The notes under the pieces are model-generated. The model saw only the letters and a list, made by a program, of their open reading frames with translations. It made no database searches and had not been told where the DNA came from. Below are positions 20,062 through 26,721 of a stretch of DNA of 64,000 nt, piece by piece. Within the stretch, counting starts at the first letter, position 1. The number at the start of each line of letters is the position of its first letter. A program made the translations under genes and the position numbers. Source of the stretch: Thermodesulfobacteriota bacterium (lineage in GTDB: Bacteria > Desulfobacterota > Binatia > Bin18); assembly GCA_964291405.2 (NCBI GenBank), contig OZ219926.1, positions 3,680,001 through 3,744,000 on the forward strand, in the 5' to 3' direction.

Positions 20062-21108
20062 CTACGACACTCTGGGCAAGACCTCTTTTCCGAACCGATC
20101 CAGCGAGCCCATGATTTTGTCGTGGGCCAACCCGCCGAAATTTGCCAGCAGACTCACGTTGGTGATGCCCATGGCCTGGATTTCCTTGATGCGCTCGACG
20201 CACTGGTCCGGATCACCAAATATGACTTTATGCGGGTACAGATAGCCCTCATAGTCAAAAGTCTTGAAGGCGTCCTTGAGGCCCTGGTACGGCCGATACT
20301 GATCGGAGTAGGCGGCTTCCTGGTTGGAGGCGGCCACTGCGTTTATATAGCGCATCATGGCCTCGCGGGGCTCTTCCTTCGCCTTTTCCGCGGTCTCGCC
20401 GCAATAAAAATGGTACACCCCGAGGATTTCCGGAGCGTCCGCGTAGCCATGTGCCTGCCGGGTCTGGGTGAAGAGTTGGAGGCGGCCCACCAGGACTTCC
20501 GGATTGGGTTGGGCATAGGGGACGACCATTAAATGATAGCCCATCTTGCCGGCCCATTCGAACGATTCCGGCGTAAAAATACAGGCAACATAGACGGGTG
20601 GTGGTTTCTGAACGGGTTGCGGAATGACCTGGAGATTGCGAACCTTGCGGAATTTGCCGTCGTGAGAGACCCGTCTTTCCGCCCAGGCTTGCATGATGAT
20701 GGCGTGCGCTTCTTCAAACAGCGCCCGACTGTCACCCATATTGCGCTCAAAGGCGTCGTACTCGCCCTTTTGAAATCCCCGTCCAATCCCGAACTCCAAT
20801 CGCCCGCCCGATAAGCAGTCGAGCATGGCATACTCCTCTGCCAGCCGAATCGGGTCCTGGAGCGGCAGGAGGGCAATCCCGGAGCCAATGCGGATGTTCT
20901 TCGTACGTTGGGCAACCGCAGCCCCAATCACCGGAACGGAGGGCAGATGGCCGCCGTAATTATAAAAATGGTGTTCCGCAAACCAGACGGAGTGAAAGCC
21001 GAGAGCCTCAGCCTGGTCGGTCTCCGTGAGCATGTCCAGGTAGAATTGCTCATCGCTGGTATGAAATTCCGGGAAAAAGCTGGGTAAATGAAAGAGTGAG
21101 ATTCGCAT
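20062..21108 (-). CDS. Luciferase-like flavin monooxygenase (LLM)
   Basis: WFAEHH, P.RLAEE.A.LD.LSGGRLEFGIGRG; AGGAGG RBS before the ATG at 21108. Confidence 0.9.
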   Translation of the reverse strand: MRISLFHLPSFFPEFHTSDEQFYLDMLTETDQAEALGFHSVWFAEHHFYNYGGHLPSVPVIGAAVAQRTKNIRIGSGIALLPLQDPIRLAEEYAMLDCLSGGRLEFGIGRGFQKGEYDAFERNMGDSRALFEEAHAIIMQAWAERRVSHDGKFRKVRNLQVIPQPVQKPPPVYVACIFTPESFEWAGKMGYHLMVVPYAQPNPEVLVGRLQLFTQTRQAHGYADAPEILGVYHFYCGETAEKAKEEPREAMMRYINAVAASNQEAAYSDQYRPYQGLKDAFKTFDYEGYLYPHKVIFGDPDQCVERIKEIQAMGITNVSLLANFGGLAHDKIMGSLDRFGKEVLPRVS

Positions 21109-21781
21109 ACCGCCTCCTATGGTTCCTCTGTGCGACATGAAGTCGCTTAGAAAGATGGTTCAGATTATTTCTGTGTGAAAGAAAGGACACACAGACAGAG
21201 CCCTGTGAGTGTACACACAGGCATCATATCCCACATGCGTGCTGAGTAATTAGCAGGTGTGAAGCTGGGATAAAAGCCTAATGGGAAGGTAAATCATATA
21301 CCAACCCTGGGCCAGATGCAGACTGGTACGGTGAACGAAAGTGAACCCTTATTTGAAGCGTCGTGACGTAGGACTTCCGAAAGATGATTGATACGGAAGA
21401 ATGAGGCAAATGAACCCCTGCTGTTGATATAGGGGTGAGAGGTCGTAGTAGAGGATTATGGCCCGCGTACACCACAGCCTCCGGCGTAAAGAGGGCACCT
21501 ACCCCAGTCGTCTAACTTTCTATGCGGAACATGGTAAACCCGATGGGGTCTCAGACGAGCATGAGTAAGCCGACCGTAAGGAAGGCCGAATCCCTCAGCG
21601 GGAATGAGAGGTCTCAAGAAGCGAATGCCAGCAGCCGAAAGGTAACGGGAAAAGACCATCACACCCCAAGTGCACCACCCATTACTGCCACAATATGTGG
21701 AAAGCGGGAGGGCACATCATTGAATGGGGTGATCCGGGAAAAAAAAGGTTTTGAGTCCAAGAAAAGGGGTTCAAGGCAGGA

Positions 21782-21970
21782 CTATCCCAGGGACGATAAC
21801 ACAACCTGAATGACAACGGCACAAGAGACTGCAATCTCAGCACCAGTTGTCATCCAAGAAGCTACACGGGAATTCCGTGACTTGAAAAACTTAGCACCTT
21901 GTTTGCACACTGCCTCAGCAGCTTTGCAAAAACGATGGGCGCTTCGTAAAAACTTCTTGAACTTCTTCAT
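21782..21970 (-). CDS. Intron-borne antisense small protein A (62 aa; basic amphipathic N-terminus, hydrophobic C-terminus)
   Basis: GGAGA RBS then ATG; MKKFKKFLRSAHRFCK...AEIAVSCAVVIQVVLSSLG; lies within the DIIIa loop. Confidence 0.5.
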   Translation of the reverse strand: MKKFKKFLRSAHRFCKAAEAVCKQGAKFFKSRNSRVASWMTTGAEIAVSCAVVIQVVLSSLG

Positions 21971-22160
21971 AACATTCTCCATTTGGTTATGAGGTGAACA
22001 ACACAGGGCGTGAAGTCATCCGGGATAAGAAATCCCAAAGCCTCCTTTCTGTCTCCCTTGTCGCGATCAAGAGAAGACGGGATAAAGACCAAAACTTCCC
22101 AATGGCCTAATAACCGGCTGGATAAAGAGGGAAGGCATCCCCGCCGAAACGGGAAACAGT

Positions 22161-22346
22161 TTAACGTCGTGGACTAGATTCATAGGAACCTGGTAGCACG
22201 TAATTCATGGCATCCTCCGATGGAGGGTAGCTGCTCTGTAGATCATCATCCATAGATGAACTTCCCGGAGAGTCCTTCTCCGAAGCAGCGATAGCCAGAA
22301 GAACGACGGCACCAACACCAAGCCAAAACCAATCTTTGGCCCTCAT
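22161..22346 (-). CDS. Intron-borne antisense small protein B (61 aa; N-terminal TM, acidic Ser-rich tail)
   Basis: GGAGGT RBS then ATG; MRAKDWFWLGVGAVVLLAIAASEKDS...; lies within the DIIIb loop. Confidence 0.55.
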   Translation of the reverse strand: MRAKDWFWLGVGAVVLLAIAASEKDSPGSSSMDDDLQSSYPPSEDAMNYVLPGSYESSPRR

Positions 22347-22633
22347 ACGAATAACCTCCAATTCTCAGTTGTGTGAAAAGTATGAGAAACAAGGAAATTA
22401 AGGGGATAGAATACTGGAAGGACTGGTAGTGACAGTCCCAAAAACCTCCTTTCTCCTGGTAAGGCAAGGAAGAAGTGACCAAAGCACAGGAAAGATTGGC
22501 TGGCCCACCCAGCCATGACACCAAAAGAATCAAAACCATGACGGAAAAACAACCTTCCAATCTCTCAGGGTGAAAACCCGCTGACGTGAGACTGGTAGTC
22601 TGTCCAAAAATCTTTGAAGAAAGGACGCACATC

Positions 22634-24310
22634 ATGGCTGACGTGATGATCCAGGCAACTGGAAACGAGGTCGTGACGCGACAATGGCAAGACATCGATT
22701 GGTGTCACAACGCCAAAATCGTGCGCGACCTTCGACACCGTATTTTTCGGGCTTCGCGGCTAGGGGACCGGAGGAAACTTCGGAACCTGCAACGCCTCAT
22801 GCTGAAATGCCGAGCCAATCATGAGATGAGTATCAGACAGGTTACGCAAGTAAGCACAGGGCGCAATACGCCAGGTATTGACAAGGTGATAGTCAAAACG
22901 CCGGCAGCGCGAACCGAGCTAATGGAAGCAATCGCAACCTACAAGCCGGAAAGAGCGCAGCCGGTCAAACGGGTCTTTATTCCCAAACGCAACGGTAAAC
23001 AGCGACCCCTCGGTATCCCGACCATCATGGATAGGGTGATGCAGGCAATTGTCAAGAACGCCTTAGAACCCGAATGGGAAGCCAGGTTTGAATCAAGCGT
23101 CTACGGCTTTCGCCCAGGGCGCAGTTGCCATGATGCCATTCAACGCATCTATGCAAATGTCAAACCGAACTTGAAGAAACATTGGGTCGTTGACGCCGAT
23201 ATCGTTGGAGCCTTCGACAACATCCCCCACGAAACCGTGCTGAACGCAATCCAGGGATTCCCAGGAAAAGCACTCATTCACGCATGGTTACAATCCGGCA
23301 TCCTGGAAGGCACAACACAGAAGCCAACACTCCTGGGAACTCCCCAAGGCGGTGTAATCTCGCCATTACTGCTCAACATTGTCCTGCATGGACTCGAACA
23401 GGCTCTTGATATCCGATACCAGAAAAGTGGAAACCGATACCGGAACATCAGCAACCGAACCCTGGTTAGATATGCAGACGATTTTGTCATCCTCACGGAG
23501 ACAAAAGAAGACGCCGACGCAGCGCAAAAACGAGCAGCAGAATGGCTACAAGAGCGCGGGCTGGAACTCTCACCAGAGAAGACCAGTATCCGACACCTGA
23601 CAGAAGGATTCGACTTTCTCGGATTCCATGTCAGACACTATCCTGACACAAACGTGAAAACAGGATGGAAGCTCTTAATAAAACCCAGCAAGGAAACGGT
23701 CAAAGCTTTCCGATACCGACTCAAACAAGAATGGACGGCTTTAGTCGGACATAACGCAGAGTCAGTCGTAAGAAGGCTGAACCCAATTCTGAGAGGATGG
23801 GGGTATTACTTCCATACGCAAGTATCAAAGGCCATCTTTCAGGACATCGACAACTGGATGTTTCAGAGGGTGTACCGATGGTGTAAGCGGACCCATCCAC
23901 AGAAAAGCTGGGAGTGGATCAAAAACACCTACTTCGGAAAGGCAAAAACCAACAGTCAGGCAAAATGGTACTTCGGAGGAACAGAAGGGCGTCTGCTGAA
24001 ACTCTCAGAGATTCCCATCCAACGACATATCCTAGTCTGGCATACCGCATCACCGGATGATCCACGGCTTGCAACATATTGGGAAGAACGTCGAAAGAAG
24101 GCTTGGAAGAACCTCCCTTCACCACGTCAACGGGATTTGGCCAGAAGGCAAAAGGGGCTCTGCTCGCACTGTCGAGTGAGTCTGTATACTGGTGAGGAAT
24201 TACACACCCACCACCATATCCCAAGGAAAAAGGGCGGAACTGACAAGCGCGAAAATCTGAGACTCGTACACCTCTATTGTCACCAGCAGATACATGGTAA
24301 ACGATGTTGA
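22634..24310 (+). CDS. ltrA: Group II intron reverse transcriptase/maturase with HNH endonuclease
   Basis: RT0 NTPGID, RPLGIPT..DR, YGFRPGRSCHDA, GTPQGGVISPLL, YADD, maturase X domain, CSHC...HH..P...GG...NL..VH..CHQQIH; AGAAAGGA RBS before the ATG at 22634. Confidence 0.97.
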   Translation: MADVMIQATGNEVVTRQWQDIDWCHNAKIVRDLRHRIFRASRLGDRRKLRNLQRLMLKCRANHEMSIRQVTQVSTGRNTPGIDKVIVKTPAARTELMEAIATYKPERAQPVKRVFIPKRNGKQRPLGIPTIMDRVMQAIVKNALEPEWEARFESSVYGFRPGRSCHDAIQRIYANVKPNLKKHWVVDADIVGAFDNIPHETVLNAIQGFPGKALIHAWLQSGILEGTTQKPTLLGTPQGGVISPLLLNIVLHGLEQALDIRYQKSGNRYRNISNRTLVRYADDFVILTETKEDADAAQKRAAEWLQERGLELSPEKTSIRHLTEGFDFLGFHVRHYPDTNVKTGWKLLIKPSKETVKAFRYRLKQEWTALVGHNAESVVRRLNPILRGWGYYFHTQVSKAIFQDIDNWMFQRVYRWCKRTHPQKSWEWIKNTYFGKAKTNSQAKWYFGGTEGRLLKLSEIPIQRHILVWHTASPDDPRLATYWEERRKKAWKNLPSPRQRDLARRQKGLCSHCRVSLYTGEELHTHHHIPRKKGGTDKRENLRLVHLYCHQQIHGKRC

Positions 24311-24402
24311 GAAAGGTGTTGAAAAGGGGCGCAAAAGGATAATCCAAAGAAAAGAATACAGGGTCCGGTGTGAGCCTTGGCCCACACCGGAGGTCCTGCA
24401 TC

Positions 24403-24480
24403 CTAGCTTGCCAGCTCTAGGATAATCCACACGGCTACCAAGAAACGGTAGTCAATACGGAGATGCATGGTAAAATCCAT
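24403..24480 (-). CDS. Intron-borne antisense micro-ORF C (25 aa, hydrophobic)
   Basis: AGGTG RBS then MDFTMHLRIDYRFLVAVWIILELAS*, followed by hairpin 24364-24391 and a T-rich tract on the minus strand. Confidence 0.35.
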   Translation of the reverse strand: MDFTMHLRIDYRFLVAVWIILELAS

Positions 24481-24957
24481 ACAAACACCTATTTTTGTGG
24501 CTCAAAGGCCGAAGCTGAGTCAGCCGTAAAGGTAGGACGGTAGGATTGAAAATCCCTACCAACTGTGTAGGATTTACCAGCACACCGTCAGCGCTGATAA
24601 GCCACCAACTGTTTGCAGCAGTTGGTGGCGGCTTCAAAGCCCGTCCCTTGCGGACGGGCTTCCCTTATTTTCCAGCACAAACAACACAAGCCGTAAAGTA
24701 CGACAGACTGCTTGAGCCGTGTGCGGTGAAAGTCGCACGCACGGTTCTTAGGGGGGAAGGGCCTTGTGAGGGGCCTGACCTACCCGATTCATAGCCGACT
24801 TTCCCCCTGGAAAGAAGGCGGGAGAGGCGGAGTCTGCCTCTGGGGGTACGTTGAACTGGATGCGTGGGTTTGCTAGTTGGAGAGCTTATTTACTATTATA
24901 GAGAAAGCGCAGATAGACGGTCTGCATAAGAGTTGGTCGGTGTTATAGCAGGAGAGG

Positions 24958-26721
24958 GTGGTGATGCAGGCAAAATGTCCGGGATGGCGTGCGGCGCTCT
25001 TGTTCGTCGTTTTGTTCGTCGGAGTGTGGTCCGGCTCTGCGTTTGGAAACGTTGATAAGCACGCGTCTCCCGCGTTTTCTCCGCTCCCCTATCCACAAGC
25101 CCTCCGACCCCAGGTCGAGTTCTGGACCAAGATTTTCGCCACCTACTCGGAATACCAGGTCGTCGTTCACGACGCGGTCTATTTGGACAAGGTGTACGCC
25201 GTCCTCGATTTTCGACCGCTCTTAAAGAAGCATAGCGAAGCCAAGGCCCGGAAGCTGAAAGCCAAGCGGACCAAGCAGGAACTCAGAAAAATTCGGGCCA
25301 CCCTGCGGAAACTCCATAAACACGGTGCAAAAGGGCGAACGCTGAGTACGCGTGAGAAAAAAATTCGGGCGCTCTTCAGAGATGTCAAGGAACGCCACAA
25401 GTTCCGTAAGGCCGCGGCCAAAGGGCGACTGCGGGCACAGTCCGGGATACGGGAGCGCTTTCACCAGAGCCTGCGCCTTTCCGGTCGGTATCTGCCCAGG
25501 ATGGAAAAGATATTCCGTCAAAAAGGACTCCCGGTTGTCCTGACTCGCCTCCCACTGATCGAATCGTCTTTCAATATTGAGGCCTATTCAAAAGTTGGTG
25601 CGGCCGGCATTTGGCAATTCATGCCCGCGACCGGGCGCTTGTTTCTGACGATTAACCATGTGGTTGACGAGCGCCTTGACCCCATCATTGCCACCCGGGC
25701 TGCCGCCGACTTGCTCAAGTCAAATTATGACAGGTTGCAAACCTGGCCGCTTGCAGTCACGGCCTATAACCATGGCCCGTCCGGCATGGCGCGCGCCGTT
25801 CGGAAAGTCGGCACGCGCGATATTGTTCCCATTATCCGCCGCTACAAAAGCCGGACGTTCGGGTTTGCTTCGCGGAATTTCTATGCCGAGTTGCTGGCGG
25901 CCATTGAGGTTGAGAAAAACAGCGCCAAATATTTCGGCCCCATCAAACGCGACCCTCTCCTCCGGTATGATGAAGTTGATCTTCAGCATTTTGTTTCCCT
26001 CGAAAATCTGGCCAGAGCTGCCAACACCAGTACCGAGCGGTTAGTGGCGCTCAACCCGGCCTTTGGGTCACTGGTTCGGAACGGGAAACTCCACGTCCCA
26101 CGCGGCCACCGTTTACGTATCCCGGCCGGTGCTCGGAAAGACTTCGACCGGCGTTACGCCGCGCTCAGCCCTCGGGCCAAGGCCGACCAACAGGCCGCTG
26201 CCTTTGCTTTTCATAAGGTCCGGCGTGGGCAGACGCTGGGTGGTATTGCGCAGCGCTACGGGACGAGCGCTCGAACTCTGCAACGCCTGAACGGACTCAG
26301 AAGCGCGCATTTCATCCGCATCGGACAACGTCTGCGCGTCCCTCTGAGAGGGAAGGGCAGACGGTCGACGACCCGATCCGTCCAGGTGGCACGGGCAGCT
26401 TCGCAGGACGGGACGCATACCGTACGTCGGGGAGAATCGCTCGGAAAGATCGCCCAGCGCTACAACACAACCGTGGCGGCGCTCCAACGGCTCAACGACA
26501 TTAAAAACGCCGCGCTGATACCGGTCGGGAAAAAACTGCGCCTCTCGGCTGACTCTCCTGGTAAAGCACGGTATGTCAAACACCGGGTCCGGCGTGGCCA
26601 AACGCTCGGTAGCATTGCCCGCCGCTACGGCACAAAGGTGTCCATTCTGAAGCGTCTGAATGGTGTGAAGAACGTCAGACGCCTGCAAATCGGCCAGGTG
26701 TTGCGTATTCCAACGGGCTGA
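24958..26721 (+). CDS. MltD-like lytic transglycosylase with three LysM domains
   Basis: IESSF, GAAGIWQFMP.TG, AYNHG; three HxVRRG.TL..IA.RY LysM repeats. Confidence 0.9.
   Translation: MVMQAKCPGWRAALLFVVLFVGVWSGSAFGNVDKHASPAFSPLPYPQALRPQVEFWTKIFATYSEYQVVVHDAVYLDKVYAVLDFRPLLKKHSEAKARKLKAKRTKQELRKIRATLRKLHKHGAKGRTLSTREKKIRALFRDVKERHKFRKAAAKGRLRAQSGIRERFHQSLRLSGRYLPRMEKIFRQKGLPVVLTRLPLIESSFNIEAYSKVGAAGIWQFMPATGRLFLTINHVVDERLDPIIATRAAADLLKSNYDRLQTWPLAVTAYNHGPSGMARAVRKVGTRDIVPIIRRYKSRTFGFASRNFYAELLAAIEVEKNSAKYFGPIKRDPLLRYDEVDLQHFVSLENLARAANTSTERLVALNPAFGSLVRNGKLHVPRGHRLRIPAGARKDFDRRYAALSPRAKADQQAAAFAFHKVRRGQTLGGIAQRYGTSARTLQRLNGLRSAHFIRIGQRLRVPLRGKGRRSTTRSVQVARAASQDGTHTVRRGESLGKIAQRYNTTVAALQRLNDIKNAALIPVGKKLRLSADSPGKARYVKHRVRRGQTLGSIARRYGTKVSILKRLNGVKNVRRLQIGQVLRIPTG

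Follow-up and report, generated by a model that had tools for sequence, protein, structure and literature searches.

The window analysed in this work is a stretch of 64,000 nucleotides (nt) from a Thermodesulfobacteriota bacterium (contig OZ219926.1, positions 3,680,001–3,744,000), and it contains a mobile group II intron with two inserts that each carry a small open reading frame (ORF) on the opposite strand. The intron occupies positions 21130–24788 of the plus strand (3659 nt, GTGCGAC...CCCGAT), and its 5' end GTGCGAC (5' GUGCG) starts at 21130. The Rfam model group-II-D1D4-7 (RF02012) matches at 21201–21288 with 39.8 bits (gathering cut-off 34), and the domain V/VI model (RF00029) matches at 24712–24788 with 68.6 bits (gathering cut-off 40). 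The intron-encoded protein (IEP, 22634–24310, plus strand) contains the Pfam domains RVT_N, RVT_1, GIIM and HNH (E-values of 9e-24 to 5e-47, and 2e-08). Five loci in sister genomes have empty sites, which read ...GGTTCCTTT|TCATAGCC without interruption. The boundaries of the intron were set at 21130 and 24788 because the window has GTGCGAC...CCCGAT between the flanks that are joined in these empty sites. With its ribozyme domains, a reverse transcriptase/maturase with HNH and a precise insertion with empty sites, the element is a mobile bacterial group II intron. It is present in one copy in its own genome. Natural bacterial group II introns are usually described with a single gene, the reverse transcriptase. 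In the lineage of this intron there are as many as four additional segments, each at a fixed permissive site, and two of these sites were studied here. They hold a backwards-facing mini-gene with strong translation signals in five of five cases, and the gene varies by species.

The two inserts were located by comparison with homologous introns. The IEP is 58–65% identical to the IEPs of the genomes G018, G023, G010 (2 copies) and G067 (10 copies). The sequence upstream of the IEP start is about 1500 nt long in the window versus about 565–600 nt in the G067 copies, and in a MAFFT alignment the extra sequence forms insert A (about 21656–22109) and insert B (about 22136–22552), each of which carries its cassette on the minus strand. 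Both lie in a multi-arm domain at 21611–22593 of the plus strand, which is closed by a helix between 21611–21617 and 22587–22593. The window was placed on an RNAalifold consensus of 25 insert-free homologues through the MAFFT alignment; in this consensus the outer helix and each of the three arms are supported by compensatory changes. The domain is located just upstream of the IEP ORF and may be DIII-like. Two long-range inverted repeats (I5 and I3) were considered as a domain IV (DIV) stem and dropped for the covariation-supported helix. Site A is the apical loop in the second branch of the first arm, which reads ...ACGGGAA|...|ATAACCGG... around insert A. Site B is the loop of the next hairpin, which is GGG-CAATA-CCC in most relatives and is closed in the window by AGAGGGAAGG/CCTTCC-AAT-CTCT. 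Insert A is missing from G067 and from the basic forms in metagenomes, as seen in the alignment, and the introns of three sister species, G010, G018 and G023, have different inserts at site A (180, 427 and 387 nt, respectively). Metagenomes were also scanned with a conserved-segment pattern and 80 loci were fetched, of which 47 had an IEP start that could be placed. The basic layout, with the IEP start 139–292 nt away from the pattern, applies to 45 of the 47. Of the remaining two, L053 has a negative offset and several IEP fragments, and in L063 the distance is 798 nt. In L063 the IEP matches are split (residues 6–55 at 321–470 and residues 76–206 at 1143–1529), suggesting that the IEP ORF is interrupted by an insertion of about 670 nt. 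No additional antisense cassette turned up in the 80 loci, and a scan of genome contigs for more insert-bearing relatives returned just 5 distant IEPs with 44–57% identity.

Each insert in the window encodes one small peptide on the minus strand. Cargo ORF A (21782–21970, 62 amino acids (aa)) has a basic N-terminus and a C-terminal hydrophobic segment (KD19 hydropathy 1.88, net charge +9), and an alternative ATG at 21982 would extend it to 66 aa. Cargo ORF B (22161–22346, 61 aa) has an N-terminal hydrophobic segment and an acidic tail (KD19 1.59, net charge −4). As judged by a hydropathy scan alone, both fit a small peptide with a membrane-like segment. Each cargo ATG has its own proximal Shine–Dalgarno (SD) sequence, a point that was absent from the original prediction made for this locus. 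These are a GGAG at 21977–21980, 6 nt before the ATG at 21970, and a GGAGG at 22355–22359, 8 nt before the ATG at 22346 and inside the 4–8 nt peak of this genome. Both cargos are also present as public gene calls, P0001 (62 aa, from the ATG at 21970) and P0002 (61 aa).

To compare inserts, an ORF filter was used that takes an ATG with GGAG, GAGG or AGGA ending 4–10 nt upstream and an ORF of at least 40 aa. For inserts A and B and the inserts of G010, G018 and G023, exactly one such ORF was found on the antisense strand in 5 of 5 cases, and none on the sense strand (0 of 5). In the G018 insert, two adjacent ATGs of one ORF pass the filter and were counted as one. All five antisense ORFs contain a hydrophobic 19-mer with a KD of at least 1.44. 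In dinucleotide shuffles of each insert, the probability of an SD-ATG-ORF was 0.002–0.06, and it was 0–0.022 when the hydrophobic segment was also required. The antisense ORFs are thus non-random.

The cargo of the G018 intron provides separate evidence. Two proteins are homologous to this Gly/Ala-rich cargo of 81 aa: P0007 has 72 aa and 72% identity, and P0008 has 73 aa and 63% identity. P0007 is encoded in the genome G019 outside any intron, between the Cas_NE0113 and CRISPR_Cas6 genes (L163:1498–1716, minus strand), and the cargo genes of G018 and G019 have no detectable DNA similarity. Since the protein was kept while the DNA diverged, at least the G018 cargo is, judged by its conservation, a real gene. 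The 72-aa protein of G019 looks like a Gly-zipper-like small membrane protein, and it is possible that it is a small membrane accessory of the CRISPR-Cas locus. The idea of antisense cassettes is supported by the shuffling statistics and by this one conserved cargo in a relative.

The two cassettes share one element in the region upstream of their cargo ORFs. Box A (22022–22050, minus strand) consists of AGAAAGGAGG (22050–22041), CT, and TT followed by the hairpin GGGAU-UUCUU-AUCCC (22036–22022). Box B (22420–22454, minus strand) consists of AGAAAGGAGG (22454–22445), TTT, and TT followed by the hairpin GGGACUG-UCACUAC-CAGUCC (22439–22420). The original prediction had described them as AGAAAGGAGG-CT-TTGGGA at 22050–22033 and AGAAAGGAGG-TTT-TTGGGA at 22454–22436 of the minus strand, and both are present. 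In both cassettes the TTGGGA opens the hairpin directly after the box. The distance from the box to the cargo ATG downstream of it is about 63 nt in A and about 90 nt in B. They are the sole two matches of the composite pattern in the window, and at least two matches were obtained in 0 of 100 dinucleotide shuffles. When 301 genomes of the same class were searched, the pattern matched three times, namely the two boxes here and one site in G272 among the other 300 genomes. The G272 site was rejected as a related box, since it lies in a GGAGGAATTGGG repeat.

The sequence of the box corresponds to the end of the 16S rRNA. The host 16S gene ends with ...GGATCACCTCCTTTCTAAG, and AGAAAGGAGG is a perfect 10-nt complement (10/10) of the 16S tail ...CACCTCCTTTCT; the 3' end complementary to the box is also written ...CCTCCTTTCT. 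The complementarity to the tail reaches 11 nt for box B and 12 nt for the SD of the G023 insert. In the whole 4.95-Mb genome AGAAAGGAGG occurs at 11 sites. One is in the rDNA and two are the sites described here, 404 nt apart on the same strand; among the sites elsewhere, 4 precede plausible starts at a spacing of 4–6 nt. Apart from the box the two inserts are dissimilar, as had been predicted, and the best local alignment between A and B is the 19-nt box alone. Its score was reached in 32 of 1000 shuffles, which is marginal as plain similarity. The box is nevertheless unlikely to have arisen by chance, because it is identical to the anti-SD complement and lies upstream of both ORFs, and on the strength of its sequence and position it is non-random. 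A duplication of one cassette from the other is not detectable, as the box alone aligns and the peptides are unrelated. Capture of a 16S 3' fragment by template switching was also rejected, since the 16S identity ends after 10–12 nt and the boxes are 57 and 98 nt inside the inserts, away from the junctions.

We tentatively favour, with a little less than even confidence, a reading in which the mobile intron carries two antisense cassettes and the box is a non-initiating 30S-binding element of their 5' untranslated regions (UTRs). The insertions sit in apical loops of peripheral ribozyme arms, where extra RNA would be tolerated. Each would express, from the antisense strand, a peptide of about 61–62 aa that has one membrane-spanning segment and its own proximal SD. 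The AGAAAGGAGG box and the TTGGGA hairpin would bind 30S subunits without productive initiation, and the 30S-bound box would keep RNase J off the 5' end of the antisense transcript in a STAB-SD-like manner. Alternatively, or additionally, the box may be a standby site that feeds the downstream cargo start, a start that a 7-bp stem would partly close. In the sense intron RNA, these stems together with a rod-like fold would let each insertion fold on its own, and this RNA, being fully complementary to the cassette mRNAs, could repress them. We infer here that the minus strand is transcribed, that the box binds 30S subunits and stabilises the transcript, and that the peptides have a role.

STAB-SD is described as an SD-like sequence at −125 of Bacillus thuringiensis cry3A that protects the processed mRNA, and this sequence is thought to bind 30S without initiation and to block 5' decay (PMC12970973). 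The box resembles STAB-SD in its complementarity to the 3' end of the 16S rRNA, in its large distance from the start codon and in the presence of RNase J in the host. It differs in lying inside an intron, opposite the ribozyme strand, and in having a hairpin and a TTG directly behind it. The host genome contains an RNase J homologue, which matches TIGR00649 with 542 bits (cut-off 400). Because of this homologue and the STAB-SD precedent, we favour a role of the box as a stabiliser or standby site. The sole start near the box is a TTG at 2–3 nt, where weak initiation may occur.

This TTG was the basis of a different reading in the original prediction, in which the cassettes are controlled like hok/mok. 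The hok/mok locus has a small hydrophobic toxin, an overlapping frame upstream whose end coincides with the start of the toxin, a structure that closes this start and a complementary RNA. Accordingly, the box would be the SD of a TTG leader, and translation of the leader would open the stem and couple into the cargo via ATGA; the cargo would be a type I toxin, with the intron RNA or a shorter sense RNA as antitoxin. The frames themselves were reproduced. Leader frame A (21967–22038, minus strand, 23 codons) translates to LGFLIPDDFTPCVVHLITKWRML and leader frame B (22343–22441, minus strand, 32 codons) to LGLSLPVLPVFYPLNFLVSHTFHTTENWRLFV, each followed by the stop. Both frames are open further upstream, to a TTG at 22092 (41 aa) and a TTG at 22552 (69 aa). 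Direct reading of the sequence confirms that the stops overlap the cargo starts as ATGA at 21970–21967 and 22346–22343. The stems over both ATGs, which are rare in controls as described below, and the small size of the peptides with one hydrophobic segment each also fit such control. The minimum free energy (MFE) fold of the antisense RNA brings the 5' end of insert A into pairing with its 3' end, and hok mRNA shows a comparable fold-back of its ends. The cassettes thus share with hok/mok loci a hydrophobic peptide ORF, an overlapping frame, a structured start and a fully complementary RNA from the opposite strand. They are unlike them in having no family match, in the distance of the TTG leader from its SD and in the own SD of each cargo. 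Moreover, the complementary RNA would be a 3.7-kb ribozyme rather than a short small RNA.

Several results argue against the leader. The spacing from GGAGG to TTG is 2–3 nt, and the caveat that this is too short, which had been raised with the prediction itself, is borne out by the genome. The spacing from GGAGG to ATG peaks at 4–8 nt (115, 271, 198, 198 and 153 sites), whereas GGAGG to TTG shows no start peak and a period-3 background only. The four genomic AGAAAGGAGG sites in front of plausible starts, at 4–6 nt, point the same way. The TTG GGA is buried within the hairpin stem in both cassettes. Leader coupling would be dispensable because the cargo ORFs have well-spaced SDs of their own. 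Conservation of the motif and of the ATGA overlap in homologous introns had been proposed as a check, and neither was found in G010, G018 or G023, whose unrelated inserts have an AGGAGG-type SD 4–9 nt directly before the cargo ATG and no leader. Searches of cargo A and B gave no Pfam, NCBIfam, PADLOC or PHROGs family at a meaningful E-value and neither Hok/Gef nor any other toxin family. The features were also chosen post hoc. Thus, the view of the inserts as cassette-like units with shared regulation holds in so far as they are discrete, carry antisense ORFs beyond chance and have a non-random 5' element, but hok/mok leader control is weakened by these results, and we consider it unlikely and the weaker of the available readings.

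The stems over the cargo starts were found as had been described. For cargo A, TCATAAC/GTTATGA forms a 7-bp stem over the ATG (21967–21973 with 21986–21992, both strands) with the proximal SD in a 12-nt loop. For cargo B, CTCATAC/GTATGAG forms a 7-bp stem (22342–22348 with 22380–22386, both strands) with the SD in a 31-nt loop. A perfect stem of at least 7 bp over the ATG was obtained in 49 (A) and 67 (B) of 2000 shuffles; among 796 control gene starts from this genome, 19 have one. The local 5'-UTR folds are no stabler than shuffles (z −0.16 and −0.17). Weaker analogues exist in relatives. The 6-bp TCATAC/GTATGA stem of G010 was reached in 190 of 2000 shuffles and a 6-bp match in G023 in 219 of 2000; in G018 a pairing of 8 bp between TATAAACC and GGTTTATA over the SD-ATG spacer was seen by eye and was not counted by the stem criterion. 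It is possible, on these predicted folds, that the stems gate translation in the antisense mRNA.

The same stems fit the folding of the sense intron RNA equally well, which had also been noted as a caveat. In the sense RNA the cargo A stem has 9 bp with one G-U pair, and it is in the MFE and centroid structures of both strands. The cargo B stem is lengthened in the sense RNA by UCUUUG/CAAGGA. The G-U extensions of both stems are C-A mismatches in the antisense RNA. As wholes the inserts are strongly structured: relative to 60 shuffles each, insert A folds with z −3.3 (sense) and −3.6 (antisense), and insert B with z −4.75 (sense) versus −1.82 (antisense). From these G-U extensions and the whole-insert structure in the sense RNA, the stems are explicable by keeping each insert self-contained in the ribozyme.

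A second alternative is that the constraint lies in the sense intron RNA. Here CCUCCUUUCU would mimic the 16S 3' tail and act as an anti-SD or a tertiary contact, perhaps by pairing with the IEP SD AGAAAGGA (22616–22623), and the boxes and stems would not be antisense signals. The sense-only extension of both ATG stems and the more structured sense form of insert B agree with this, and box TCCTTTCT is an 8-nt complement of the IEP SD region AGAAAGGA. Among 55 distinct insert-free homologues, 24 have a hairpin of about 40 nt at site A, with CUCC in 23 of the 24 and CCUCC in 17 of the 24. Reading of the sequences (L043–L122) places these motifs in the apical loop. No antisense ORF fits there, so in some members of the family the sense CCUCC at this site should matter to the intron RNA. 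However, the boxes in the window are outside apical loops, and the closest relatives, the G067 basic forms, have no CCUCC hairpin. Introns with the CCUCC hairpin show no clear matching GGAGG in their IEP ribosome-binding regions. A constraint on the sense RNA also leaves unexplained why all five inserts have an antisense SD-ATG-ORF with a hydrophobic segment and none has a sense one, and why the G018 ORF is conserved as protein. We regard this explanation as improbable.

A third explanation is that the box is a relic. Both cassettes would have inherited it from one 5' segment that was duplicated or recombined, or from earlier ORFs whose start lay immediately behind the box, as it does in G023, and neither the box nor the leader frames nor the stems would have a function today. 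That the box was stranded by a rearrangement is plausible because a strong SD directly precedes the cargo ATG in G023, G018 and G010. The 19-nt box as sole similarity between the inserts and the orphan status of cargo A and B are in line with it. A neutral remnant, however, would not retain the 10/10 complementarity to 16S twice amid fully diverged flanks, nor does a relic account for the hairpin that follows both boxes. This makes it quite unlikely in our view.

Our preferred reading of antisense cassettes with a non-initiating 30S-binding box has to face a number of observations that weigh against it. In the protein database, cargo A and B returned just themselves (P0001, P0002). HMMER against 1.84 billion representatives gave the cargo protein itself and three short matches (23–27 aa) to long proteins, and the latter were regarded as spurious rather than as homologues. 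The Atlas search gave nothing usable, with recognition scores of 1685 and 1861 for cargo A and B against 2300. The codon usage of the cargos was uninformative when compared with 741 long host ORFs, and the IEP itself scores near zero in this comparison. On the minus strand of 21100–24850 no sigma-70-like promoter was found, a search in which the sigma-70 consensus may not be that of the host. The distal boxes are partly paired in MFE folds. Relatives without an antisense ORF still keep the sense CCUCC at site A, so the box could serve the intron RNA. A TTG frame stays open to ATGA with a chance of about 0.115 for A and 0.089 for B, and the joint chance of about 0.01 favours a leader ORF on this point.

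The cassettes can also be compared with other known systems. The standby site of tisB is an unstructured region and is not known to be SD-like. As in this type I toxin mRNA, upstream loading of ribosomes is proposed here for the closed start of a small membrane peptide, and unlike it the candidate standby site is an SD-like box. In targetrons of the Ll.LtrB type, engineered cargo or retrotransposition markers are placed antisense in domain IV (DIVb). The cassettes resemble these in that foreign genes lie in a permissive intron loop in the orientation opposite to the intron. They differ in being natural, in lying in two arms upstream of DIV, in varying with the species and in encoding small membrane peptides. 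Fungal mitochondrial group II introns carry LAGLIDADG ORFs in domain III. Like these organellar introns with extra ORFs, the intron described here has a second coding sequence in a peripheral domain other than DIV; the LAGLIDADG ORFs are sense and encode homing endonucleases, whereas the cassette ORFs are antisense, bacterial and tiny.

The titles and abstract openings of the literature searched describe neither a natural antisense gene for a peptide nor a type I toxin within a bacterial group II intron. If the cassettes are expressed, such introns would ferry small membrane peptides, possibly toxins or defence effectors, and the ribozyme RNA would double as an antisense regulator. This would tie retroelement biology to the biology of type I toxin-antitoxin systems and small proteins. 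The natural placement of cargo in the ribozyme may be informative for targetron design, and the box is a candidate non-initiating ribosome-binding element outside Firmicutes. A more speculative extension, to which we give a low probability, is that the permissive loops dock exchangeable antisense cassettes for membrane-active peptides, with the intron RNA, spliced or unspliced, as the antitoxin of an addiction or defence module. Such a module would make the retroelement hard to lose. A defence role would fit the finding that one cargo is akin to a small gene in a CRISPR-Cas accessory locus.

The intron is not fixed in the population. In the runs X1 and X2, which come from two studies, contigs that skip the intron (21127/21128 joined to 24788) were found beside contigs that bear it. 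The word depths of the two forms were 44.6 versus 28.9 in X1, and 5.64 and 2.41 versus 2.6 in X2, these being contig word depths and not cell fractions. The coexistence of contigs with and without the intron indicates that the insertion is polymorphic and probably recent. In runs X1–X3 no variant was found that misses insert A or insert B alone.

A luciferase-like monooxygenase gene on the minus strand has its ATG (21108) just 21 nt from the intron, which lies on the upstream side of the gene; the SD of this gene reads CCTCC at 21113–21117 on the plus strand. With this position the gene is cut off from an intergenic region of about 190 nt (24789–24960 side), the presumed site of its promoter. 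The monooxygenase gene is now either silenced or reliant on minus-strand transcription that leaves the intron.

Other segments of these introns are also variable. The introns of G010 and G018 carry a further insert (about 480 nt), which lies in a hairpin upstream, at the equivalent of about 21556 in the window. This insert contains a sense-strand ORF of 140–143 aa (L034:3513–3944 and L024:3803–4225, both minus strand), which is 45% identical between the two introns (E 8e-42) and has no family match. Judged by this conservation it is a second intron-encoded protein, with a function left unassigned by family search.

In the window, a third lineage-specific insert (V3, 24311–24700, plus strand) lies between the IEP stop and domain V. 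V3 is hairpin-rich and has an SD-ORF on neither strand. It is missing in G010, G023 and G067, and G018 has an unrelated one. Its sense strand has a strong terminator-like hairpin with a T-run at 24637–24671, about 50 nt before domain V, and two sigma-70-like sites are present on the plus strand at 24449–24476 and 24546–24573. Over 18 nt, the junction between inserts A and B (22117–22134) is 83% complementary, as an inverted repeat, to the T-rich tail of the V3 hairpin (24659–24676). Each of these two segments follows a GC-rich hairpin, and they could represent a long-range pairing or a shared terminator-like module.

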